IMG/VR virus record: IMGVR_UViG_2563366882_000002 | Origin: a virus | Lineage: Duplodnaviria > Heunggongvirae > Uroviricota > Caudoviricetes | Length of the DNA: 36,507 nt | Strand: one strand, 5' to 3' | In this document: positions 8,987 through 35,573 of the stretch, piece by piece | Numbering within the stretch: the stretch's first letter is position 1 | Layout: the number at the start of each line of letters is the position of its first letter | The notes under the pieces: model-generated | What the model was told of the DNA's origin: nothing | The model's database searches: none | Seen by the model: the letters and a program-made list of their open reading frames with translations, nothing else | Made by a program: the position numbers and the translations under genes

Positions 8987-9727
8987 TCAGTTTTCTTTGA
9001 ATTTTTCACTTAATCGTTTCGTCAATACTTCGACAGATTCTTTGCGACCGGAGAACAAGTCATTGACGACGTACTCCATAATCTCAAAAGCATCCTCAAT
9101 GTCTTTGACTTTTACTTCATCGTAGGTATGGCTTCCGGCATTTCCTAAAAATTTAATTGCCATAAGAGGTCTTGAAAACGATCCGTATAATTCAGGTAGC
9201 ATCCCTAAACGGTGGTGTAGAGTTATGCGTTTGCCATTATCATTACGTTCAGCTACATCCATAGCGGTTAGCATTCTTTCAACTGAAATTCGAATTAGGT
9301 TTGCTGCTGCGCCAGGCTGTATTAGGAAAATGGAAAATGAGGCTTCAAGCGGTTCGGTAATTTCTTCTGGGCATTTTTCAGGTATTTCGAAAGGATGCAG
9401 TGATGGGTAAAAGGTGAAAGGTCTGTGCCATTGATAGTACTCAATATCATTTCTTTCTTCATCCCAACCTTGTTCCCATCCACTCTTACCAGTACAGGCC
9501 ACAACTTCACCACATTGCATTCTTGAACAGCGGGCCATGCAACTGAAAATAGATGAATCCATTTCTAGTTCAAACCAATCTTCACTGCGGAATTTTCGGG
9601 TATCATGTGTGTCATACGAGACGAAACTTTCTTTAATGATCTGTAGGGTTTTCTGATTGCAGTTAGGGCAGGGCCACTCAACCTGCATATCGTGGAAAAA
9701 CGCACCAGAGAGCTTGTGCACAGTCAT
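8987..9727 (-). CDS. Zn-ribbon + DUF4145-like protein, candidate abortive-infection/defence gene
   Basis: 246 aa; CPNC...CMARCSRMQCGE cysteine cluster; C-terminal IKFLGNAGSH...helical region resembling DUF4145 (from memory); AT-rich; sits at the P2 tin/old position. Confidence 0.45.
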   Translation of the reverse strand: MTVHKLSGAFFHDMQVEWPCPNCNQKTLQIIKESFVSYDTHDTRKFRSEDWFELEMDSSIFSCMARCSRMQCGEVVACTGKSGWEQGWDEERNDIEYYQWHRPFTFYPSLHPFEIPEKCPEEITEPLEASFSIFLIQPGAAANLIRISVERMLTAMDVAERNDNGKRITLHHRLGMLPELYGSFSRPLMAIKFLGNAGSHTYDEVKVKDIEDAFEIMEYVVNDLFSGRKESVEVLTKRLSEKFKEN

Positions 9728-10168: not shown

Positions 10169-11083
10169 ATGCCATACCAATTGGTAGAGCTTAGCCCCGT
10201 AGCTAACGATCTTGAACAGTTAGGAACCAAAGAGAAGTTTTGGTTCTATTTCTCCGATGACACTGTAAATTTGCAGTTGTTTAAGTACTCTAGGCCAGGT
10301 ACTGGCGAGCATTGGTCTGAAAAGTGTGCTGCTGAGTTATGTCATTTGCTTAACATTCCACATGCTAGCTATGATTTGGCGCGATACAATGGTCGATTCG
10401 GTGTGGTGACTCAGAATATCATTCCATCTGGTTTCCGGATGGTAATGGGAAATGAAGTGCTTCACAGTTCGACATTCGATTATCCTGGGCCTTTACAAGC
10501 CGGGGAAAAGCCGGTAAGGGTCAGAGAACACACTGTCACAAGGGTATTGGGTTGTTTGGATAGGGAATCTATCAAGCCTCCTCCGAGTGTATATGATCTA
10601 ACCGGACTAAATGCAGCAGATGTATTTTGTGGATATTTGATGCTCGATGCACTTGTGAGTAATCAAGATCGCCATCATGAAAATTGGGCGATCATGCTTA
10701 ACAATGAAACTGGTGAGCAGTTTTTGTGTCCAACATACGATCATGCCGCTAGTTTAGGAAGGGAGATGTTAGATGATGAGCGTAACGAACGGCTTAATAC
10801 TAAAGATAAAAATCGACAAATCCCATGTTTTGTAAGAAAAGCTCGCTCTGAGCTATTCAAAGCAAAAACTGATAAAAAGCCCTTGCTGACCGTTGAAGCA
10901 TTTCAACATGCAGTTGAAGGGAGAGTTGCCGCTCGCGACCATTGGTTAGGTAAGTTGAGCGTTTTAACAGAAGATTCCATTACAGATGTGTTTAACCAAG
11001 TGCCTTCATCGTGTATATCCGACAGTGCACGTAGATTTGCAACGTTAATGGTAATGGAAAATCGCAGAAGGTTACTAGAATGA
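10169..11083 (+). CDS. HipA-like Ser/Thr kinase (HipA_C-only, HipT-like short form)
   Basis: 304 aa; GTKEKFW, LVSNQDRHHENWAI and CPTYDHAASLG motifs in HipA order and spacing; AT-rich. Confidence 0.6.
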   Translation: MPYQLVELSPVANDLEQLGTKEKFWFYFSDDTVNLQLFKYSRPGTGEHWSEKCAAELCHLLNIPHASYDLARYNGRFGVVTQNIIPSGFRMVMGNEVLHSSTFDYPGPLQAGEKPVRVREHTVTRVLGCLDRESIKPPPSVYDLTGLNAADVFCGYLMLDALVSNQDRHHENWAIMLNNETGEQFLCPTYDHAASLGREMLDDERNERLNTKDKNRQIPCFVRKARSELFKAKTDKKPLLTVEAFQHAVEGRVAARDHWLGKLSVLTEDSITDVFNQVPSSCISDSARRFATLMVMENRRRLLE

Positions 11084-11820
11084 CTAATACAAACTCCGTT
11101 TACGTCGCATGGCAGGCACCAGATACCAGAGACTGGCATGTTGTTGGTAACTTGCAAGAGCGCAAATCGGGGTATGTTTTCAGGTATACCAAAGGTGCTC
11201 TTAAATCTACTAAATTTACAAAGTTTAGCGGCATGAGTGATGTTCGTGAAACTTATGTTTCGGAAGAATTGTTTCCTCTTTTTAAAAATCGCCTTTTATC
11301 ACCGAGACGTCCAGAGTATCCGAGTTTCATTAAATGGCTTGGATTTGAAGAAGATAAGGTAAATCCTATCGATATTCTTGCTCGCTCGGGAGGCTTACGA
11401 AGCACTGATCAGCTGCAGATTTTCAAAAAAATTGATGTTGATTCTGATGGTAACTTTGAGCATTTTTTCTTCTTACATGGACTTGGTTACTTAAATAGCT
11501 TAGCTAATGCTCGTGTATCTGAATTGAAACCGGGGCAAATTTTGCGTCTTTGCTTGGATCTTCAAAATGAATACGATGGGGATGCTGTTGTCGTTCGTGC
11601 AGATAAACCAGCTGAAATCGTTGGTTACTGCCCTAGGTATTTAAGTAATGATATCAAGAAGATGTTATTGGATGATCCAAAATCAATCACTTTAACGGTC
11701 GAAAAGATTAGCGATGATGCTCCTCATAACTATCGGTTATTATGTAAATTATCAGGAGTACTAAGCCAAGCCTGTCAATCGACGCTGATTCCTCAGGATG
11801 AGTTTGAACCTATTGAGTAA
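11080..11820 (+). CDS. HIRAN-domain protein, partner of the HipA-like kinase
   Basis: 246 aa; ATGA start/stop overlap with the kinase gene; C-terminal GLGYLNS...LRLCLDLQNEYDGDAVVVRADKPAEIVGYCPRYL resembles HIRAN. Confidence 0.5.
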   Translation: MTNTNSVYVAWQAPDTRDWHVVGNLQERKSGYVFRYTKGALKSTKFTKFSGMSDVRETYVSEELFPLFKNRLLSPRRPEYPSFIKWLGFEEDKVNPIDILARSGGLRSTDQLQIFKKIDVDSDGNFEHFFFLHGLGYLNSLANARVSELKPGQILRLCLDLQNEYDGDAVVVRADKPAEIVGYCPRYLSNDIKKMLLDDPKSITLTVEKISDDAPHNYRLLCKLSGVLSQACQSTLIPQDEFEPIE

Positions 11821-18839: not shown

Positions 18840-19217
18840 ATGAAAAAGAAATTAATCAGCGGGCTGTTTCTGATGTTATGGATGGCGCTGTTAATCGCAG
18901 CAATGGTGTATCCGCAAGGGATCTTTCCGGTACTGGCAGCGTCCGGCGTTTGGGTAGCCTGTTTGCTGACATGGGCGGTAATTCCGGTAGCACTGGCTGC
19001 GTTAATTCAGAATGGCCCGCTCTGGCAGGAGTTAAGGGCATCTTTGCTGAAGACAATTACCCGAAAAGAAAACGTATTTATCTGTTGGGTGATGCGATTG
19101 CTGATTGTTGTAAGTCTCGCATGGACGGGGTGGGCTATTACCCTGGTCTTTTATCTACTGACCGTTATTGCCTTCTGGATCACCCGTAATCAGATGGCGC
19201 AACAGGTAGCAGCATGA
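18840..19217 (+). CDS. membrane protein in lysis cassette (LysA-like)
   Basis: about 125 aa from MKKKL with several hydrophobic helices. Confidence 0.5.
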   Translation: MKKKLISGLFLMLWMALLIAAMVYPQGIFPVLAASGVWVACLLTWAVIPVALAALIQNGPLWQELRASLLKTITRKENVFICWVMRLLIVVSLAWTGWAITLVFYLLTVIAFWITRNQMAQQVAA

Positions 19218-19642
19218 ACCGGTTGCTGCTGGTTGTGCTGGCGTTATTACTGGCGGCGCTGGGCTGGCAGACGTGGCGGCTGGCTGATGCCAGCCAGACC
19301 ATCAGCACGCAGGCAAACGAGCTGCAGAGCAAAAGCCAGGCACTGGCAAAGAGCAACAGCCAGCTTATCAGCCTGTCCATTCTGACTGAAACCAATAACC
19401 GGGAGCAGGCGCGGCTCTATGCCGAAGCAGAACAGACCAGCGCACAGCTGAGACAACGACAACGCCGGATCGAGGAACTGAAACGTGAGAACGAGGATTT
19501 ACGCCACTGGGCTGGTACTCCTTTGCCTGCTGACATTATCCGGCTGCGGGAACGTCCGGCACTCACCGGAGGTGCAGCTTACCGTCAGTGGTTGTCCGCG
19601 AGTGACGCCGTGTCGGCTGGAGCAGGCAGCACCGCGCACTAA
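19214..19642 (+). CDS. LysB, Rz-like inner-membrane spanin
   Basis: N-terminal TMD then coiled-coil-like Q/E/R-rich periplasmic domain. Confidence 0.6.
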   Translation: MNRLLLVVLALLLAALGWQTWRLADASQTISTQANELQSKSQALAKSNSQLISLSILTETNNREQARLYAEAEQTSAQLRQRQRRIEELKRENEDLRHWAGTPLPADIIRLRERPALTGGAAYRQWLSASDAVSAGAGSTAH

Positions 19643-19775
19643 CGGTGATCTGAATGCGTTGCTGGATGAAACGGAGGCCGCCTGGGCGGTCTGTGCAGAC
19701 AAAGTGGACATGATTATTGCGTGTCAGGAGCGAAACAGTGAACAAACCACAATCCCTGCGCCACGCCCTCAATAA
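19485..19775 (+). CDS. LysC, Rz1-like outer-membrane lipoprotein spanin
   Basis: lipobox LTLSGCG; overlaps the 3' part of LysB out of frame. Confidence 0.55.
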   Translation: MRTRIYATGLVLLCLLTLSGCGNVRHSPEVQLTVSGCPRVTPCRLEQAAPRTNGDLNALLDETEAAWAVCADKVDMIIACQERNSEQTTIPAPRPQ

Positions 19776-20169
19776 AGCGGTGCCTTATGTCCGCAATAAC
19801 CCGGACAAACTGCATCTGTTTGTGGATAACGGTTCGCTGGTTGCCACGGGGGCCAGCTCCATGTCATGGGAGTACCATTATACCCTCAACGTGGTGATTG
19901 AGGATTTCAGCGGCGACCAGAATCTGCTGATGGCCCCGGTTTTGCTGTGGCTGAGGGATAACCAGCCCGATGCCATCAATAACCCGGCGTTACGGGAAAA
20001 GCTATTCACCTTTGAGGTGGATATTCTGCGCAACGATGTCTGTGATATCAGCCTGAACCTGCAACTGACGGAACGTGTGCTGGTCAGCACTGACGGCAGT
20101 GTGTCGAGCGTTGAAGCTATAGCGGAACCTGATGCACCTGAAGAAATGTGGACGGTGAAACGTGGCTGA
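19738..20169 (+). CDS. R: tail completion protein R
   Basis: proposed GTG start 19738 after AGGAG; synteny. Confidence 0.55.
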   Translation: MNKPQSLRHALNKAVPYVRNNPDKLHLFVDNGSLVATGASSMSWEYHYTLNVVIEDFSGDQNLLMAPVLLWLRDNQPDAINNPALREKLFTFEVDILRNDVCDISLNLQLTERVLVSTDGSVSSVEAIAEPDAPEEMWTVKRG

Positions 20170-20608
20170 ACTGCAGAAGGTGGACGACTGGCTGAGTGCC
20201 TTGCTGGCGAATCTGGAACCAGCCTCGAGAAGCCGCATGATGCGCCAGCTGGCGCAGGAACTTCGCCGGACACAGCAGCAGAATATCAGGATGCAGCGCA
20301 ACCCTGACGGCAGCAGCTATGAACCGCGACGGGTAACAGCACGCAGTAAAAAAGGCCGTATCAAACGTCAGATGTTTGCAAAGCTGCGCACCACAAAATA
20401 CCTGAAAACTGCCGCCAGCACCGACTCTGCCAGCGTGCAGTTTGAAGGCAAGGTGCAGCGCATTGCCCGCGTTCACCATTACGGCCTGCGAGATCGCGTC
20501 AGTCGTAAGGGACCGGAGGTGCGTTACGCAGAGCGTCGCCTTCTGGGTGTAAATGATGATGTTGAGGCAATGACCCGCGACATGATTCTGCAATGGCTGG
20601 CGGGGTGA
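20162..20608 (+). CDS. S: tail completion protein S
   Basis: 148 aa vs P2 S about 150. Confidence 0.65.
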   Translation: MAELQKVDDWLSALLANLEPASRSRMMRQLAQELRRTQQQNIRMQRNPDGSSYEPRRVTARSKKGRIKRQMFAKLRTTKYLKTAASTDSASVQFEGKVQRIARVHHYGLRDRVSRKGPEVRYAERRLLGVNDDVEAMTRDMILQWLAG

Positions 20609-20612
20609 TCTT

Positions 20613-20630
20613 TGTATCAGCACTGATACA
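20613..20630. promoter_or_regulatory. Ogr-type late promoter element TGT-N12-ACA upstream of V
   Basis: TGTatcagcactgatACA in the S/V gap. Confidence 0.5.
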
Positions 20631-20676
20631 AGTTGCAGCACTGCCGCCTTTCTTCCCCTGATGGCAACCTTTCCCT

Positions 20677-21255
20677 ATGAACGCACAATTAACCGAAATC
20701 ATGCGCCTTATCACCAACCTGATCCGCACAGGGGTAGTCACCGAAGTGGATAGGGAAAACTGGCTTTGCCGGGTGAAAACGGGCGAGCTTGAAACCAACT
20801 GGATCAGCTGGCTGACGCTGCGTGCCGGGAATGCCCGTACATGGTGGCGACCATCGGAAGGTGAGCAGGTGGTGCTGCTGAGTCTGGGCGGCAATCTGGA
20901 AACCGCCTTTGCGCTGCCCGCTGTCTATTCGAATCAGTTCGCACCACCGTCGACGTCGGCGGATGCCTGCGTGACAGAACATCCTGACGGTGGCTGGTTT
21001 GAATACGAACCCGCCACCGGGCGCTGGTATGTCAGGGGCATCAAATCAATGGTCATTGAGGCTGCTGACAACATCACCATGAAAACCAGTGAGTTTGTAC
21101 TGGAGGCTGACCGCACGCGCATTAACAGCGAAGTGGTGATCAATGGTGGCGTTACCCAGGGCGGCGGAGCGATGAGTTCTAACGGGATCGTGGTTGATGC
21201 GCATCAGCATACTGGCGTCCTGAAAGGCGGCGATACAACCGGAGGCCCGGTATGA
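20677..21255 (+). CDS. V: baseplate assembly/spike protein V
   Basis: 192 aa; synteny. Confidence 0.75.
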   Translation: MNAQLTEIMRLITNLIRTGVVTEVDRENWLCRVKTGELETNWISWLTLRAGNARTWWRPSEGEQVVLLSLGGNLETAFALPAVYSNQFAPPSTSADACVTEHPDGGWFEYEPATGRWYVRGIKSMVIEAADNITMKTSEFVLEADRTRINSEVVINGGVTQGGGAMSSNGIVVDAHQHTGVLKGGDTTGGPV

Positions 21256-21611
21256 CGCTTTATAGCGGGATGAACAATACCAGCGGCAAAGTCATTACTG
21301 ATATTGATCATCTGCGCCAGTCGGTGCGGGACATTCTGCTGACACCGCAGGGTAGCCGTATTGCCCGCCGGGAATATGGTTCCCTGCTGTCTGCACTGAT
21401 AGATCAGCCACAAAATCCGGCATTACGCCTGCAGGTCATGTCGGCTGTGTATGTTGCACTGAGTCGCTGGGAGCCACGGCTGACGCTGGATTCCATCACT
21501 ATTAACAGCAATTTTGACGGTTCAATGGTGGTGGAGCTGACCGGACGGCGGAATAACGGTGTGCCTGTGTCCCTTTCAGTATCAACAGGAGCAGAGAATG
21601 GCAGTGATTGA
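21252..21611 (+). CDS. W: baseplate protein W
   Basis: 119 aa vs P2 W about 115. Confidence 0.75.
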   Translation: MTLYSGMNNTSGKVITDIDHLRQSVRDILLTPQGSRIARREYGSLLSALIDQPQNPALRLQVMSAVYVALSRWEPRLTLDSITINSNFDGSMVVELTGRRNNGVPVSLSVSTGAENGSD

Positions 21612-22506
21612 CCTTTCGCAGTTGCCTGCACCGCAGATTGTGGATGTGCCGGACTTTGAGACGCTGCTTGCCGAACGCAAGGCAGAATTTGTGGCGCTTC
21701 ATCCGAAAGATGAGCAGGAAGCAGTGATCCGCACGCTGGAACTGGAATCTGAACCCGTCACCAAATTGTTGCAGGAGAACGCTTACCGTGAGTTGCTTCT
21801 GCGCCAGCGCATTAATGAAGCCGCGCAGGCGGTAATGGTGGCTTACGCGATGGGCGGCGATCTTGACCAGATCGCTGCCAACTACAACGTGAAACGCCTG
21901 ACGGTGACGCCTGCTGATAATGACGCTGTGCCGCCCGTGGCAGCAGTGATGGAAAGCGATGAAGCGTTACGCCTGCGTGTGCCTGCAGCCTTTGAGGGGC
22001 TTTCAGTTGCGGGGCCAACTGCAGCTTATGAATTTCATGCCCGAAGCGCCGACGGTCGGGTGGCGGATGCCAGTGCAACCAGCCCGGCACCTGCAGAGGT
22101 GGTGCTGACTGTCCTTAGCCGCGAAGGCGATGGAACTGCAGAAAAAGACCTGCTGGACGTGGTGGAAAAAGCTCTGAACAGTGAGAACGTCCGCCCGGTG
22201 GCTGACCGTCTGACGGTTCGCAGCGCAGAAATCATCCCGTATCGCGTGGAAGCCACCATTTTTCTCTATCCGGGACCGGAAGCAGAGCCGGTAATGGCAG
22301 CGGCAAAAGCCAGCCTGCAGAAGTACATCGCCAGTCAGACGCGTCTTGGTCGGGATATTCGCCGTAGCGCCATCTTTGCCGCCCTGCATGTTGAGGGTGT
22401 GCAGCGTGTGGAGCTGGCTTCTCCTCTGGCGGATGTGGTCCTGAACAAAACACAGGCGGCATCATGTACGCAGTGGAGCGTAACCAACGGAGGAACGGAT
22501 GAATAG
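21598..22506 (+). CDS. J: baseplate protein J
   Basis: 302 aa from MAVIDLS, identical length to P2 J; CAGGAG RBS. Confidence 0.8.
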   Translation: MAVIDLSQLPAPQIVDVPDFETLLAERKAEFVALHPKDEQEAVIRTLELESEPVTKLLQENAYRELLLRQRINEAAQAVMVAYAMGGDLDQIAANYNVKRLTVTPADNDAVPPVAAVMESDEALRLRVPAAFEGLSVAGPTAAYEFHARSADGRVADASATSPAPAEVVLTVLSREGDGTAEKDLLDVVEKALNSENVRPVADRLTVRSAEIIPYRVEATIFLYPGPEAEPVMAAAKASLQKYIASQTRLGRDIRRSAIFAALHVEGVQRVELASPLADVVLNKTQAASCTQWSVTNGGTDE

Positions 22507-23104
22507 TCTGCTGCCACCGGGTTCAACTTCACTGGAGCGCCGACTGGCGCAAACCTGTAGCGGGATTTCTGATCTGCAGGTGCCGCTGCGTGACTTGTGG
22601 AGTCCGGCTACCTGTCCGGTCAGCTTCCTGCCTTATCTCGCCTGGGCGTTCTCTGTGGATCGCTGGGACGAGGGCTGGACAGAAAGCGTCAAACGCCAGG
22701 TAGTGAAGGATGCTTTTTATATTCATCAGCATAAAGGAACCACCAGTGCCGTGCGGCGGGTGGTGGAACCGTTCGGATTCCTGATCCGCATTATTGAGTG
22801 GTGGCAGACCGGAGAAACACCGGGCACGTTTCGCCTGGATATCGGCGTGCAGGACCAGGGCATCACTGAAGATACCTATCTGGAACTTGAGCGGCTGATA
22901 AGCGATGCCAAACCATGTAGCCGTCACATGATCGGCATGTCCATCAATCTGCAGACCAGCGGTCCGCATTGGGTGGGGGCCGCCAGCTATCTTGGCGAAG
23001 AAATCACGATCTATCCGTATATCAACGAAACAATTATTTCTGGCGGCACCGCGCATGAAGGCGGGGCGGTCCATGTTATTGACACAATGAGAGTGAATCC
23101 ATGA
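22499..23104 (+). CDS. I: baseplate protein I
   Basis: 201 aa; synteny. Confidence 0.75.
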   Translation: MNSLLPPGSTSLERRLAQTCSGISDLQVPLRDLWSPATCPVSFLPYLAWAFSVDRWDEGWTESVKRQVVKDAFYIHQHKGTTSAVRRVVEPFGFLIRIIEWWQTGETPGTFRLDIGVQDQGITEDTYLELERLISDAKPCSRHMIGMSINLQTSGPHWVGAASYLGEEITIYPYINETIISGGTAHEGGAVHVIDTMRVNP

Positions 23105-24237
23105 GCACAAAATTTTATACCCTGCTGACGGATATTGGCGCGGCGAAACTTGCCAGCGCCGCCGCGCTCGGTGTGCCGCTAAAAATTACCCATATGGCGG
23201 TCGGCGATGGCGGCGGAGTATTGCCAACGCCAGACTCAAAGCAGACTGCACTGGTAAATGAGAAACGCCGGGCTGCGCTGAATATGCTCTATATCGACCC
23301 GCAGAACAGCAGCCAGATTATTGCCGAACAGGTGATCCCTGAAAACGAGGGCGGTTGGTGGATACGTGAAGTGGGCTTGTTTGATGAGTCCGGGGCATTG
23401 ATTGCCGTGGGCAACTGCCCGGAAAGCTATAAGCCGCAACTGGCTGAAGGTAGCGGGCGCACTCAGACCGTGCGCATGGTGCTGATTACCAGCAGCACGG
23501 ACAATATCACCCTGAAAATCGACCCTGCCGTAGTGCTGGCAACCCGCAAGTATGTGGATGACAAGGCACTGGAGCTGAAGGTGTACGCGGATGATCAGAT
23601 GGCAAAACATCTTGCCGCACCGGACCCGCATTCACAGTATGCACCCAAAGAAAGTCCGACGTTTACCGGGACACCCAAAGCGCCAACGCCAGCCGCAGGG
23701 AATAACACCACGCAGATTGCGACCACCGCGTTTGTTCAGGCGGCTCTGACGGCTCTTATTAATGGTGCGCCAGCCACGCTGGACACGCTGAAAGAAATAG
23801 CCGCAGCCATTAACAATGATCCGAAATTCAGTACCACCATTAACAATGCGCTGGCACTGAAAGCGCCGCTGTCGAGTCCGGCACTCACCGGAACGCCAAC
23901 CGCACCTACTGCGGCACAGTCGGTCAACAATACACAGATTGCCACCACGGCATTTGTGAAATCGGCGATTGCGGCAATGGTGGGTTCTGCACCTGCGGCA
24001 CTGGATACACTGAACGAACTGGCGGCAGCGCTGGGGAATGACCCGAACTTTGCCACGACAATGCTTAATGCGCTGGCAGGTAAACAACCGCTGGACAATA
24101 CGCTGACTAATTTGAGTGGAAAGGATGTAGCTGGTCTTCTCACATACCTTGGTTTGGGAGAAGCGGCAAAACGGGATGTGGGAACAGGGGAAAATCAGAT
24201 ACCGGATATGGCTTCTTTTGCCAGTGGTGATGCATGA
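23101..24237 (+). CDS. H: tail fibre protein H, constant part plus first 21 codons of the invertible segment, ending at an in-frame TGA
   Basis: 378-aa ORF with repeated NNTQIATTAFV tail-fibre-like motifs; P2 H position. Confidence 0.75.
   Translation: MSTKFYTLLTDIGAAKLASAAALGVPLKITHMAVGDGGGVLPTPDSKQTALVNEKRRAALNMLYIDPQNSSQIIAEQVIPENEGGWWIREVGLFDESGALIAVGNCPESYKPQLAEGSGRTQTVRMVLITSSTDNITLKIDPAVVLATRKYVDDKALELKVYADDQMAKHLAAPDPHSQYAPKESPTFTGTPKAPTPAAGNNTTQIATTAFVQAALTALINGAPATLDTLKEIAAAINNDPKFSTTINNALALKAPLSSPALTGTPTAPTAAQSVNNTQIATTAFVKSAIAAMVGSAPAALDTLNELAAALGNDPNFATTMLNALAGKQPLDNTLTNLSGKDVAGLLTYLGLGEAAKRDVGTGENQIPDMASFASGDA
24137..24162. other. left recombination site of invertible segment (gix/hix-like)
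   Basis: TTCTCACATACC-TT-GGTTTGGGAGAA, two 12-bp imperfectly inverted half-sites around a 2-bp core, resembling hixL. Confidence 0.55.
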
Positions 24238-24498
24238 ACGGGTTTTCCCAAAGGTCCTATACGGCAGTATGGTCGGGGGGCTGTTACGCGGAGATTATCG
24301 AAGCAAACGATGAGTTATCCAGTAACCATCCCATTTCCTACACTTGTGGACTGGGCCGTGCTAACTACAACTGGTGTTGGTGGTGTAATTGTAAGGGGTG
24401 TGCCGGACTTTGCTATGACCAGCAAATCACAATTATATACCAGTGTTAGCTGCGTATACAGAGCTGAAACAGTCAGATACGCAGTGTCGAGTTATTAG
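24238..24498 (+). other. in-frame continuation of H variable domain (Hv) beyond the opal stop
   Basis: same frame as H, 87 codons to TAG 24496..24498; translation aligns with the opposite-orientation Hv'. Confidence 0.45.
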
Positions 24499-24581
24499 GT
24501 TGCGTGCGGTGTTTGTGTATAACTTTGATTTGGTTCATTTAATCGAACAAAGATGTTTACTGTGCAGGTCTAAACGCTGAT

Positions 24582-24779
24582 ATGCCTGTTGACATTGTTG
24601 AGAAAAGTAAATCCTTGGACTGGGAATTATTAGACGGACAGCAGGTAGGGGGTAAAATTATCAGGTCATTTATAACTGGACCACCAGTAGGAAAAACTCG
24701 GATTACCGATGATGACGGGCGTCCTGCGAGGGCGGGTATGCATTTACCTACGCATGACGAGAATATCAAAATTGATTGA
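24582..24779 (+). CDS. small protein paired with Hv (possible fibre assembly/chaperone, U-like position)
   Basis: 65 aa; shares P.DIVE...II.SF..G.PV.K.R.IDDDGR with the minus-strand ORF at 25147..25335. Confidence 0.4.
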   Translation: MPVDIVEKSKSLDWELLDGQQVGGKIIRSFITGPPVGKTRITDDDGRPARAGMHLPTHDENIKID

Positions 24780-24877
24780 TGGGAGAAACAACTGCTAGTT
24801 AATATGACCAACACAGACATGGAAAGACTGCCATGCTCCGGGAAAGCGAATAAAGATCGTCTAGCAGTCGAGACACT

Positions 24878-25000
24878 GGCGGATCATGAGTTTAGGCTGG
24901 ATGATCTAGACACAGTGTAGCTGGTTGATTATTTCGGTCCCCGAGAGAATCGACGGGCTACGCCTTCGCCAACTAAGGCAAGCAAAACTCATGATCCGCC
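24878..25000. repeat. perfect 16-bp inverted repeat (ggcggatcatgagttt / aaactcatgatccgcc) around a 91-bp spacer
   Basis: exact reverse complements at 24878..24893 and 24985..25000, between the two convergent small ORFs. Confidence 0.6.
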
Positions 25001-25146
25001 GATTCCTCGCCTGTCAGTCCTCCTATTGCCTATTTACTCGAGCCATATTTTTTTTTCATGTATGTGTTAGCCTGATCAATTAGTATTAGTCTCTCCCATT
25101 AGGCAATTTTGATAAGCTCTGCATGCGTAAGTGACTGCATTTGCGC

Positions 25147-25335
25147 CTACTCAGCCCGCCCGTCATCATCGATCGTCCGGGATTTCCGTACTGGCAGACC
25201 ATCTTCAAATGAACTGATTATATTACGACCCTCCTCCTGTGCAGCTAATAAATCCTTGCACACTTCTTTACATATCTCAACAATGTCAGCAGGGAAGACA
25301 GTATTAATCCTTGCGATGTAAACATATTTAGTCAT
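25147..25335 (-). CDS. small protein paired with Hv' (paralog of 24582..24779)
   Basis: about 63 aa from MTKYVY; C-terminus ...RKSRTIDDDGRAE paralogous to the plus-strand small ORF. Confidence 0.4.
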   Translation of the reverse strand: MTKYVYIARINTVFPADIVEICKEVCKDLLAAQEEGRNIISSFEDGLPVRKSRTIDDDGRAE

Positions 25336-25439
25336 ATAAGAGAACCTGATTAAAGATACTCCCATACAGCCCTCGAACTGTAATTCATGGATCTTTCGTA
25401 TTTGATTATTGCTCTCCTGGAAGCGGAGCCAACAATGAT

Positions 25440-25727
25440 TTATATCTGGCATTTGGCGATCTTCACGAATTCCCCTACACCCCCTGCAAACATACCAGCC
25501 TCAGACGTTGTATGAGGCATGGCCCACTCCACTTGTGAAGGATTTGGGAATGTTACTGTGATAGTCACTGTATGGGTTGATGATGTCGGCGCAATCCCCC
25601 CCCGAATAATCTGCCCGATTGTACGTTTGTGAAATCCCGTCGATCCAAGACCACTGGCAAATGCCGCCATATCCGGAATTTGGTTTTGCCCGTTACCTAC
25701 ATTCCGTTTTGCCGCTTCTCCCAAACC
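25440..25727 (-). CDS. alternative tail-fibre C-terminal segment Hv', joined to H constant part after inversion
   Basis: encodes GLGEAAKRNVGNGQNQIPDMAAFASG... homologous to the current H end, open to stop at 25440. Confidence 0.5.
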   Translation of the reverse strand, partial: GLGEAAKRNVGNGQNQIPDMAAFASGLGSTGFHKRTIGQIIRGGIAPTSSTHTVTITVTFPNPSQVEWAMPHTTSEAGMFAGGVGEFVKIAKCQI

Positions 25728-25741
25728 AACGTTTATGAAAA
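25716..25741. other. right recombination site of invertible segment (gix/hix-like)
   Basis: TTCTCCCAAACC-AA-CGTTTATGAAAA; inner half-site identical (as inverted repeat) to that of the left site. Confidence 0.55.
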
Positions 25742-25796
25742 TGCAGAGATAATGGCTAACTGGCATCATCCCCGGTTTTTATTCAGGGGATTGATC

Positions 25797-26363
25797 ATGC
25801 TTATTGGCTATGTACGCGTGTCAACAAATGACCAGAACACCGATTTGCAACGTAATGCACTGAACTGCGCGGGATGTGAGCGGATTTTTGAGGACAAAAT
25901 CAGTGGTACTAAGTCCGACAGACCGGGGCTTAAAAAACTGCTCAGGACACTATCGGCAGGTGACACACTGGTTGTCTGGAAGCTGGACAGGTTGGGGCGC
26001 AGTATGCGGCATCTTGTTACTCTGATAGAAGAGTTGCGCCAGCGCGGCGTGAATTTCAGAAGTCTGACTGACAGTATTGATACCAGTACCCCAATGGGCC
26101 GTTTCTTTTTTCATGTCATGGGTGCCCTGGCTGAAATGGAACGCGAACTGATAGTTGAACGTACCAGGGCAGGGCTGGCTGCAGCTCGTGCTAAAGGCAG
26201 AGTAGGTGGACGCCGTCCTAAGTTGACTACCGAACAGTGGGCACAGATTGGACGTTTACTCGAGGCCGGAGAATCAAGACAGCGTATTGCACTGATTTTT
26301 GATGTGGGCGTTTCTACCATTTATAGAAAATTTCCGGCGAATGAGAACAATGAATCGCCCTGA
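25797..26363 (+). CDS. serine DNA invertase, Hin/Gin/Pin family
   Basis: 188 aa from MLIGYVRVSTNDQ (catalytic Ser motif); C-terminal HTH-like region; start after AGGGGA RBS. Confidence 0.85.
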   Translation: MLIGYVRVSTNDQNTDLQRNALNCAGCERIFEDKISGTKSDRPGLKKLLRTLSAGDTLVVWKLDRLGRSMRHLVTLIEELRQRGVNFRSLTDSIDTSTPMGRFFFHVMGALAEMERELIVERTRAGLAAARAKGRVGGRRPKLTTEQWAQIGRLLEAGESRQRIALIFDVGVSTIYRKFPANENNESP

Positions 26364-26411
26364 GTCAGCATTATTTTGATTTTTCCTGTAAGCGGACAAA
26401 TACCGTTATTT

Positions 26412-26429
26412 TGTGTGAATAACGACACA
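26412..26429. promoter_or_regulatory. Ogr-type late promoter element TGT-N12-ACA upstream of FI
   Basis: TGTgtgaataacgacACA about 80 bp upstream of FI. Confidence 0.5.
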
Positions 26430-26505
26430 ACTGCGCTTAGCTGTTTGTCAGGCACAATCACTTCAACATAGGGCGAAGCCTAATCCAATCAGGAGGTTCG
26501 CCACT

Positions 26506-27678
26506 ATGGCTCAGGATTACCACCACGGAGTGCGCGTTGTTGAAGTCAACGAAGGCACCCGATCCATTACCACGGTGAGCACCGCCATCGTGGGTATGGT
26601 CTGCACGGGCGATGATGCCGATGCAAAAATGTTTCCTCTTAATAAACCCGTGCTGATCACTGATGTGCTGACTGCCAGCGGTAAAGCGGGTGAGTCCGGT
26701 ACGCTGGCCCGTTCGCTGGACGCCATCGCTGACCAGGCAAAACCCGTGACCGTTGTTGTGCGTGTGCCGCAGGGTGAAACGGAAGAAGAAACCACGACCA
26801 ATATCATCGGAGCAGTGACCGCTGAAGGTAAAAAAACAGGCATGAAAGCCCTGTTATCTGCCCAGTCACAGCTCGGCGTTAAACCGCGCATTCTCGGCGT
26901 GCCAGGCCACGACACCAAGGCGGTAGCTACTGAGTTGCTGAGCGTGGCGCAAAGCCTGCGTGGATTTGCTTACCTGTCAGCGTATGGCTGCAAGACGGTA
27001 CAGGAGGCGATCACTTACCGTGAAAACTTCAGCCAGCGCGAAGGGATGCTGATCTGGCCTGACTTTACTGGCTGGGACACGGTGCTGAATGCCGAAGCAA
27101 CGGCATATGCCACCGCCCGTGCGCTTGGTCTGCGCGCCAAAATTGACGAGCAGACCGGATGGCACAAAAGCCTGTCCAACGTGGGCGTGAACGGTGTCAC
27201 CGGAATTTCTGCTGATGTGTTCTGGGATCTGCAGGACCCGGCAACCGATGCAGGTCTGCTGAACCAGAACGACGTCACCACGCTTGTGCGTAAAGACGGT
27301 TTCCGCTTCTGGGGTTCCCGCTGCCTGAGTGATGACCCGCTCTTTGCCTTCGAAAACTACACCCGCACGGCGCAGGTGCTGATGGACACGATGGCAGAAG
27401 CACACATGTGGGCGGTGGATAAACCGCTTAACCCGTCGCTGGCCCGCGACATTATCGAGGGTATCCGCGCCAAAATGCGCAGCCTGGTCAGTCAGGGCTA
27501 TCTCATTGGTGGTGATTGCTGGCTGGATGAGTCGGTGAACGACAAAGACACGCTGAAAGCCGGAAAACTCACCATCGACTACGACTACACGCCAGTGCCG
27601 CCACTTGAAAACCTGATGCTGCGTCAGCGCATCACCGATCAGTACCTGGTGAATTTCTCTAGCCAGGTCAGCGCGTAA
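26506..27678 (+). CDS. FI: tail sheath protein FI
   Basis: 390 aa vs P2 FI about 396. Confidence 0.8.
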
Positions 27679-27687
27679 GGGGACAAC

Positions 27688-28203
27688 ATGGCTTTACCAC
27701 GCAAATTAAAACACCTGAACCTGTTTAATGACGGGAACAACTGGCAGGGGATCGTTGAGTCGCTGACGCTGCCGAAATTCACCCGCAAATATGAGAAGTA
27801 TCGCGGCGGCGGAATGCCGGGTGCAGTGGATGTGGATCTGGGGCTTGATGACAGTGCGCTGGACACAGAATTTTCCATTGGTGGCACTGAACTGCTGCTG
27901 TTTAAACAGATGGGCAAAGCCACGGTGGATGGCATCCAGTTGCGCTTCACCGGCTCTATCCAGCGTGACGATACCGGAGAAGTGCAGGCCGTGGAGCTTG
28001 TGGTGCGTGGACGTCACAAAGAAGTGGATTCCGGCGAGTGGAAGACGGGCGAAAGCAACACCACCAAAGTGACCAGTACCAACAGCTACGCGAAGCTGAC
28101 TATCAATGGTGAGGTGCTCTATGAAGTGGACCTTATCAACATGGTGGAAATTGTGGACGGTGTGGACCTGATGGAAGCGCACCGCAACGCCCTCGGCCTC
28201 TGA
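27688..28203 (+). CDS. FII: tail tube protein FII
   Basis: 171 aa vs P2 FII about 172. Confidence 0.8.
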   Translation: MALPRKLKHLNLFNDGNNWQGIVESLTLPKFTRKYEKYRGGGMPGAVDVDLGLDDSALDTEFSIGGTELLLFKQMGKATVDGIQLRFTGSIQRDDTGEVQAVELVVRGRHKEVDSGEWKTGESNTTKVTSTNSYAKLTINGEVLYEVDLINMVEIVDGVDLMEAHRNALGL

Positions 28204-28257
28204 TGTATCTGAACGGCGCGGAATGCCGCGCCAGAACCCAATTTACAGGACAGCAAA

Positions 28258-33887: not shown

Positions 33888-35573
33888 TTATCCTAATCCT
33901 GGCCATACCATGACGATGATTGTCCCTGCCAGCGTCAGCAGGACGTTGGCGATTGCATAGGTGCCCGCATAGCCCAGCGCCGGGATGTTACTGCGAGCTG
34001 TATCACTGATGATCTCCATTGCCGGCGCGCAGGTGCGTGCGCCCATCATTGCGCCGAACAACAGTGCGCGGTTCATTCGCAATACATAAGCACCGAACAA
34101 GAAACAGATAACCACTGGCACAAGACTGACAATCAATCCGGCAATCAACATCTGACCGCCAATCGCGCCCAGGCCGTTATTAATACCGCTACCGGCGCTC
34201 AGACCAACGCCTGCCATAAACACCATTAAGCCGAACTCTTTCACCATGCTTAATGCACCCTGCGGAATGTAACCGAAGGTCGGGTGGTTAGCGCGCATAA
34301 ATCCCAGCATAATTCCGGCGAATAACAACCCGGCAGCGTTCCCCATGCCGAAACTGAATGTGCTGAATTGGAAGGTGATCATCCCGATCATCAGCCCAAT
34401 AACAAAGAAGGCGCAGAATGCCAGCAAGTCAGTGACCTGGCTGTGAATCGAGATAAAGCCGATGCGATCGGCGATGGTTTTTACGCGACGGGCATCGCCG
34501 CTGACTTGTAAAACGTCACCTTTGTTAAGCACGACGTTGTCATCTATCGGCATCTCAATCTGGCTACGAATGACGCGGTTAAGGAAGCAACCGTGATCGG
34601 TCAACTTCAGTTGTGCGAGACGTTTGCCCACGGCGTTATGGTTTTTAACGACCACTTCTTCAGTGACGATACGCATGTCGAGAAGGTCACGATCGAAAAC
34701 TTCTTTGCCGTTACGGAAGCTGGGATCGAGTCGTGCGTGGGCGTCGGGATAGCCTACCAACGCTATTTCATCGCCCATTTGTAGCACAGCATCACCGTCT
34801 GGATTCGCCAGAATCCCGTTACGTCGAATACGTTCAATGTAGCAGCCAGTTTGTCGATAAATACCCAGTTCACGCAGATTTTTGCCGTCGGTCCAGGCCA
34901 CCAGCTCCGGGCCGACGCGGTAGGCGCGGATCACCGGTAAATAAACCTTACGGTTGGCATCAGTGTCCAGGCCACGTTCGCGGGCGATTTGCTGGGCGCT
35001 GGTCTGTAAGTCCTGATGCTGCAATTTCGGCAAGTAACGCGCACCAACAATCAAACTCACCAGACCGATTAAATAGGTTAAGGCATACCCGAGGCTCAGA
35101 TTATCCAGTGCCAGTGAGAGCTGCCTGCTTTCCATGCCGGAATGACGCAGTGTATCGCCAGCACCGACCAGAACCGGTGTCGACGTCATAGAGCCAGCTA
35201 ACATACCGGCCGTCAGGCCAATATCCCAGCCAAACAGCTTACCTAACCCTAAGGCGATCACCAGCGCACTGCCAACCATCACCAGTGCTAACATTAGGTA
35301 ATTTTTCCCATCGCGAAAAAAAATGGAAAAAAAGTTCGGTCCGGCTTCGACCCCGACGCAGAAAATAAACAGCATAAAGCCAAGATTAAGCGCGTCGGTG
35401 TTAATGCTGAAATGTTGTTGGCCTAATAACAGCGATACGACTAAAACGCCAATGGAATTACCCAGTTGGATCGAACCAAGTCGTAATTTCCCGAGACATA
35501 GCCCAAGCGCGAGGACCACAAATAATAACAGAATGTAATTCCCATTTAACAATTCGGCGACGTTTATATTCAC
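33888..35573 (-). CDS. ybjL: putative transporter YbjL
   Basis: 561 aa polytopic membrane protein; N-terminus and length recognised as E. coli YbjL; neighbours ybjM and grxA. Confidence 0.8.

Follow-up and report, generated by a model that had tools for sequence, protein, structure and literature searches.

A premature TGA in the tail-fibre gene of an Escherichia coli KTE192 prophage is very probably an assembly artefact of a mosaic invertible segment

Why would a phage tail-fibre gene stop at a TGA and then run on, in the same frame, through a long stretch of protein-like codons? The question arises in a window of 36,507 nucleotides (the whole stretch of DNA analysed here, IMG/VR record IMGVR_UViG_2563366882_000002), which gene calls, the open reading frame (ORF) list and Pfam identify as a P2-like prophage. 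Its tail-fibre gene, H, reaches an in-frame TGA at 24235-24237, codon 21 past a 26-bp inverted repeat (24149-24174), and the H frame then continues for 86 sense codons up to a TAG at 24496-24498. A first-pass annotation of this DNA had described the stop and the open frame behind it (counted there as 87 more codons), and both are read directly from the sequence. It had also proposed that the stop interrupts the fibre in the current orientation of an invertible segment only, that the codons behind it are homologous to an intact alternative tip (Hv') on the opposite arm, and that one orientation encodes a truncated fibre unless the TGA is read through; nonsense mutation, sequencing error and an ON/OFF state of fibre expression were offered as causes. 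Is the TGA a lost codon, a recoding signal or neither? And does any phage carry this fibre tip at all? The genes that frame the problem are as follows.

21559-22506, baseplate gene J
22499-23104, gene I
23101-24237, + strand, P2-type tail-fibre gene H, 378 aa, ending at the TGA 24235-24237
23101..24148, + strand, Hc, the constant 5' part of H, an ORF outside the invertible segment with a Pfam Phage_tail_fib match
between H and the invertase gene, a stretch of about 1.6 kb almost without credible ORFs
26506-27678, sheath gene

The constant part of the fibre looks like genuine sequence, with 94.9% identity to E. coli S21 over its last 1000 bp, gapless, and 98% identity to other prophages. The variable part is a different matter. 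The truncated H is deposited as GenBank ELH10436.1 ("hypothetical protein A13U_01350 [Escherichia coli KTE192]") and was found in that genome only, and for the Hv that read-through would add, no protein more than 60% identical was found among 5.8 billion protein clusters. In a gapless alignment, the prophages pro483 and OkiPb01716, which carry the equivalent locus with intact genes, have TGG at the site of the TGA, the Trp of "...SGDGWMKLPNGKILQYG".

The surroundings of the stop are those of a DNA inversion system, whose parts are given below.

24137..24162, left 26-bp crossover site, TTCTCACATACC TT GGTTTGGGAGAA, central dinucleotide 24149-24150, its inner half-site inside the perfect inverted repeat
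25716..25741, right 26-bp crossover site, TTCTCCCAAACC AA CGTTTATGAAAA, central dinucleotide 25728-25729, inverted repeat
24149..25729, invertible segment as deposited, 1581 bp, two mirrored cassettes, each an alternative fibre tip (Hv) with its own assembly chaperone gene (tfa), in which every base comes from either the forward or the inverted form of an S21-like segment as in a mosaic
25440..25769, - strand, the opposite-arm ORF called Hv', reading as mosaic too and ending at a hybrid TAA, 25442-25440 (parental codons CTA and TAT)
25797..26363, + strand, serine DNA invertase gene, 188 aa, intact, with Resolvase (PF00239) and HTH_7 (PF02796) domains

A k-mer scan returned the perfect 26-bp inverted repeat (24149-24174 and 25704-25729) and, inside the segment, six more inverted-repeat seeds of 11-16 bp. 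Components by which an invertible switch of this type is recognised, namely, a serine recombinase with a C-terminal HTH, inverted 26-bp sites and a constant Hc, are present, and the fibre tips are gp53-like (PF21882). An invertase homologue sits at the equivalent position in pro483, OkiPb01716 and S21, and in S21 and pro483 the Hv/tfa pairs are annotated and intact in mirror arrangement; both parental cassettes can be recovered from the mosaic in the window. The window shares the gene order of pro483/S21-type loci (J, I, H, mirrored Hv/tfa cassettes, invertase, sheath gene), its crossover sites share their form with those of the EC958 prophages (Table 3, PMC4134206), and a serine-invertase tail-fibre switch is what it has in common with the Mu G (Gin), P1 C (Cin) and e14 P (Pin) systems and with the P2-like prophages pro483 and S21. 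The real feature is, as far as sequence can tell, an ordinary invertase-driven tail-fibre switch of the Mu G/P1 C type with two intact fibre tips. Its biology is like that of known invertible segments; the deposited sequence of the segment alone differs, as a scramble of two orientations. We also observed that the S21 cassettes (S21 locus sequence 2501-4081) have tfa lengths of 131 aa and 147 aa and that in pro483 the 147-aa cassette is paired with a different, longer partner (a 200-aa tfa and a 531-nt Hv'); because the same cassette has different partners in pro483 and S21, related prophages appear to shuffle cassettes.

Within the segment, the two arms behave oddly. The best identity found for the segment among 5,426 complete E. 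coli genomes and 50,697 phage records was 68-76%, and in the complete E. coli genomes the arms never matched above 76% or 70%, respectively. Against pro483 and OkiPb01716 the segment differs by about 32%; in the comparison with pro483 the differences fall evenly on the three codon positions, transitions and transversions stand at ~1:2 and indels number zero. All inverted-repeat seeds in the segment lie on a single antidiagonal (p+q=49878), and over 790 bp the arms correspond position by position in mirror order, again without an indel. When the left arm, the right arm and pro483 were compared with one another at 765 sites, the following pattern emerged.

all three identical, 378 sites
right arm alone different, 139 sites
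pro483 alone different, 126 sites
left arm alone different, 116 sites
all three different, 6 sites

By a hand calculation, independent substitution should have produced about 50 three-state sites. Since only 6 were observed, the sites are effectively two-state, as if both arms had been drawn site by site from two sequences. What, then, is the second sequence? We built an artificial sequence that takes the non-pro483 allele at each variable site, and this sequence matches a natural E. coli cassette, carried by S21 and about 100 other strains, at 81.6% (786/791 bases, gapless); neither real arm reaches so good a match with any genome. The first-pass annotation was right that the translation behind the TGA resembles Hv'. 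That resemblance is not ordinary homology, however, because both arms are random samples of the same two parental sequences.

Strain S21, whose genome is complete, carries a matching prophage locus whose segment contains four annotated genes, all intact, and it allows a direct comparison. Its segment has the same length as that of the window (1581 bp, with 1556 bp between the crossover repeats in both), and the flanks of the two loci are 95-96% identical, without gaps, up to the crossover sites. We denote the S21 segment as deposited by F and its reverse complement by I. These two readings differ at 1017 of the 1581 positions and are thus 36% identical; the window compares with them as follows.

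F and I different (1017 sites), window equal to F, 483 sites
F and I different (1017 sites), window equal to I, 525 sites
F and I different (1017 sites), window equal to neither, 9 sites
F and I in agreement (564 sites), window matching both, 552 sites

One or the other reading thereby accounts for 98.7% of the bases in the segment, compared with 40-45% in controls in which the register was shifted by 1-3 bases or the sequence was shuffled. The remaining 21 of 1581 bases (~1.3%) lie below the 4-5% divergence of the flanks. Along the 1008 assignable sites, the F and I labels form 493 runs against 504±16 expected, and because the runs test gives z = -0.7, the choice between the two readings is random from site to site. 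Mirrored positions are likewise independent (II 133, IF 132, FI 123, FF 112). Bases taken from two orientations, equal length, random choice and an effect confined between the crossover sites are thus all found in the same 1581 bp. This comparison of deposited sequences shows that the segment, as it stands in the draft, is a base-by-base mix of its own two orientations.

The edges of the segment are an exception to this randomness. Beside the crossover sites (24183-24201 and 25662-25695), the first 7 and last 13 informative sites are all I, and random mixing begins only ~55-75 bp inside the segment. This pattern suggests that sequence anchored in the unique flanks set one orientation at the segment ends before the mixing started, and the pure-I edges may go back to the k-mer size or the read length with which the assembly was made.

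What does this make of the TGA? At 24235-24237, the F reading of S21 has TCA (Ser, in "...SSLSSTGFQKLPSGLIIQWG") and the I reading has TGG (Trp, in "...SGDGWMKLPNGKILQYG"). The stop and the frame behind it can be described accordingly.

24235..24237, + strand, the reported TGA, a hybrid codon with T and G from TGG (orientation I) and A from TCA (orientation F)
24238..24498, + strand, the "open 87 codons", the scrambled remainder of two superimposed fibre tips

The terminal TAG at 24496-24498 is also hybrid (parental codons TGG and TAC). Both S21 orientations translate without a stop across the 122-codon fibre tip and have intact Hv and tfa genes, so that the proposal of one orientation encoding a truncated fibre finds no counterpart there; both parental codons at the stop are sense codons. 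Nor is the interruption peculiar to the current orientation, because the opposite-arm ORF also ends early: its TAA at 25442-25440 falls about 30 codons before either parental stop. The Hv' that had been called intact is a mosaic in the same way, and the tfa frames of both arms are broken, that on the plus strand (near arm) having lost its ATG and acquired in-frame stops and that on the minus strand (opposite arm) holding six in-frame stops. With high confidence, we regard the TGA at 24235-24237 as an assembly artefact of the KTE192 draft without biological reality.

Could the stop nevertheless be real? One could imagine a true nonsense mutation, TGG to TGA, in the decaying segment of a cryptic prophage, its genes for fibre tips and chaperones drifting as pseudogenes: the TGA does align with a Trp codon conserved in pro483 and OkiPb01716, and several in-frame stops, together with a difference of ~32% that favours no codon position, look at first sight like neutral decay. 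This reading would also take in the lost tfa start and the many other stops, but we dropped it as extremely improbable, the differences being two-state and free of indels. A divergence of ~30% comes with not a single indel across about 1.6 kb, three-state sites are nearly absent, and the variable sites show one of two bases that come from a single natural segment read both ways, alternating at random; a drifting sequence has no means of coming to match the reverse complement of its mirror position. Outside the segment, moreover, the prophage is intact and keeps its 95-96% identity to S21 as far as the crossover sites. Programmed recoding is a further option, in which UGA read-through by a near-cognate Trp-tRNA or by selenocysteine insertion would yield a minority of full-length fibre as an ON/OFF or dosage state. 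Among the stop codons of E. coli, UGA leaks most, and its near-cognate suppression places a Trp there, the very residue of the homologs; the 86 open codons after the TGA fit such a scheme as well. The codons downstream of the TGA are hybrid, however, with natural proteins matching them at no more than 60%, and a second hybrid stop shuts the frame early at 24496. No SECIS-like hairpin was found after the TGA, the fold of 24229-24300 having an energy of -16.8 kcal/mol (z = +0.64 against shuffles). The alignment with related prophages that the first-pass annotation had named as a check returned sense codons, TGG in pro483, OkiPb01716 and S21 inverted and TCA in S21 forward. In the absence of both a hairpin and a conserved TGA, an appeal to read-through or to an ON/OFF state is unneeded, and we accord recoding next to no probability. 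The site shares with premature-stop pseudogenes and UGA read-through sites an in-frame TGA followed by a long protein-like open frame; unlike them, it is a hybrid of two sense codons amid other hybrid codons. Of the three causes first offered, error alone survives, and it extends beyond one base to the whole 1581-bp segment.

Might the mosaic instead be physically real, made by recombination or gene conversion between the arms? In its favour, the arms form inverted copies that stay perfectly in register, and sequence exchange between inverted repeats can occur. Such exchange, however, would have to switch donors at about every second informative base (493 runs over 1008 sites), independently on each arm and between partners only 36% identical, and no homologous or site-specific recombination process is known to act in this way; we see hardly any chance that it occurred. 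Two mutational candidates were likewise rejected: adenine-specific mutagenesis by a diversity-generating retroelement, as the changes start equally from all four bases, and strand-asymmetric mutagenesis on inverted arms, considered for the mutually exclusive changes, as both arms show similar spectra without bias. A rival of a different kind accepts the superposition and replaces in-culture inversion by a contamination, i.e., two strains or sub-clones each fixed in the opposite orientation. A two-strain mixture would yield the same 1:1 superposition, and the present data look alike under both. Against it stand the intact invertase gene and crossover sites, flanks that are clean and gapless against S21 and have no further signs of mixture, and the fact that ~50:50 mixtures are normal for such segments in clonal E. 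coli cultures (PMC4134206; PMC4272514). We judge this contamination very unlikely; with invertase and sites intact, inversion within the culture is also a simpler account than a mixture of sub-clones.

We return, then, to a chimeric consensus of one segment in two orientations. Where did it arise? Over the 9137 bases compared (window 19101-28237), the window does not differ at any base from contig KB733145.1 of GCA_000352785.1, the E. coli KTE192 draft, so the mosaic sits in the public deposit itself. We propose that the sequenced culture would have held the segment in both orientations at about 1:1 and that the two versions, of equal length and with equal flanks, would have been superimposed at an assembly or consensus step. 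If one of the two bases were picked independently at each column, a chimeric segment would result, with hybrid codons, some of which would be stops. Because both tips must fuse in frame to Hc, the mosaic keeps one codon register and stays protein-like, and its arms look "homologous." The consensus composition at informative sites (483:525, forward:inverted) is consistent with this proposal, and the ~48:52 mix suggests invertase activity in the culture that was sequenced; the switch in the KTE192 prophage is apparently active. The two-parent composition, its randomness, the hybrid TGA and the intact parents in S21 are seen in the sequences themselves; the cause, a culture of mixed orientation and a consensus taken column by column, is what we infer. 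A consensus tie-break by base identity was considered and rejected, there being no preferred base at the F/I sites.

There is precedent for the first half of this proposal. In EC958, three prophage tail-fibre segments, each flanked by 26-bp crossover sites, were covered by reads of which about 50% had the other orientation, and draft and finished assemblies (Forde et al. 2014) disagree, with clustered differences exactly at the invertible tail-fibre segment (PMC4134206); in clonal EPEC cultures, inversions of P2-like prophages coexist (PMC4272514). In EC958 this led, with PacBio, to spurious alternative contigs and, with 454, to substitutions and indels clustered locally (PMC4134206). In KTE192, unlike EC958, the orientations would have been merged column-wise into one chimera over the full 1581 bp. 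How could software do this? The KTE genomes of the Broad were presumably assembled with ALLPATHS-LG, and we assume that the eFASTA braces were flattened by taking the first option. In the literature, ALLPATHS-LG output is described as containing ambiguity braces (eFASTA) that are later flattened. If ALLPATHS-LG was used, a two-path bubble of equal length written as per-site ambiguities would yield exactly such a mosaic. De Bruijn-graph assemblers seldom interleave sequences that are 36% identical, which makes this software path an unusual one and speaks against the artefact route. A literature search returned nothing on the assembly of KTE192, nor on per-base orientation mosaics.

Elsewhere in the prophage, several genes merit a brief record. 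Between replication gene A and the portal gene, a position that is a known defence-gene hotspot of P2-like prophages, two overlapping cargo genes (10169-11083 and 11080-11820, both + strand) strongly match the candidate anti-phage system PDC-M03 (PDC-M03A, E = 2e-122; PDC-M03B, E = 3e-93); the PDC-M03A-like product has a weak HipA-like kinase C-terminal match, and the PDC-M03B-like product has a HIRAN domain. The cargo region also encodes a 246-aa DUF4145 protein (8987-9727, - strand) that weakly matches the defence candidate PD-T7-4 (E = 1.6e-5). A D12-class (Dam-like) N6-adenine DNA methyltransferase gene (4884-5855, + strand), which PADLOC lists as an orphan methyltransferase, sits immediately upstream of replication gene A (5852-8272). 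The lysogeny module, which we assume to be of the phage-186 and not the P2 type, comprises an integrase (1-1131, - strand, an ORF touching the first base of the window), a CI-type repressor (1449-2024, - strand, Phage_CI_repr and Phage_CI_C) and a CII/CP76 regulator (2392-2907, + strand). An Asp-Al_Ex family permease with TrkA_C domains (33888-35573, - strand) is probably a host gene past the end of the prophage.

Taken together, the public draft and the protein record ELH10436.1 almost certainly contain about 1.6 kb that is present in no cell. Such a mosaic mimics decayed or recoded genes, with its perfect-register palindrome, in-frame stops and "homologous" arms, and it could deceive anyone who searches draft assemblies for pseudogenes, hypermutation or stop read-through at invertible loci. 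The diagnostic used here needs no reads: each base is compared with the forward and inverted readings of a related segment. Two bolder possibilities deserve to be named. One is that the mosaic exists as DNA, some unknown process having interleaved the two cassettes of the fibre-tip segment base by base, with the TGA as a true codon; this strikes us as barely credible. The other, that the artefact is systematic in the drafts of a common pipeline, is a milder reading and a likelier one. If it is systematic, public databases would have received chimeric "tail fibre" proteins, and every such mosaic would at the same time be a record of an inversion switch active in the sequenced culture. The value of the present case is mainly that of a data-quality warning. 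Biologically, the locus is a well-understood host-range switch.
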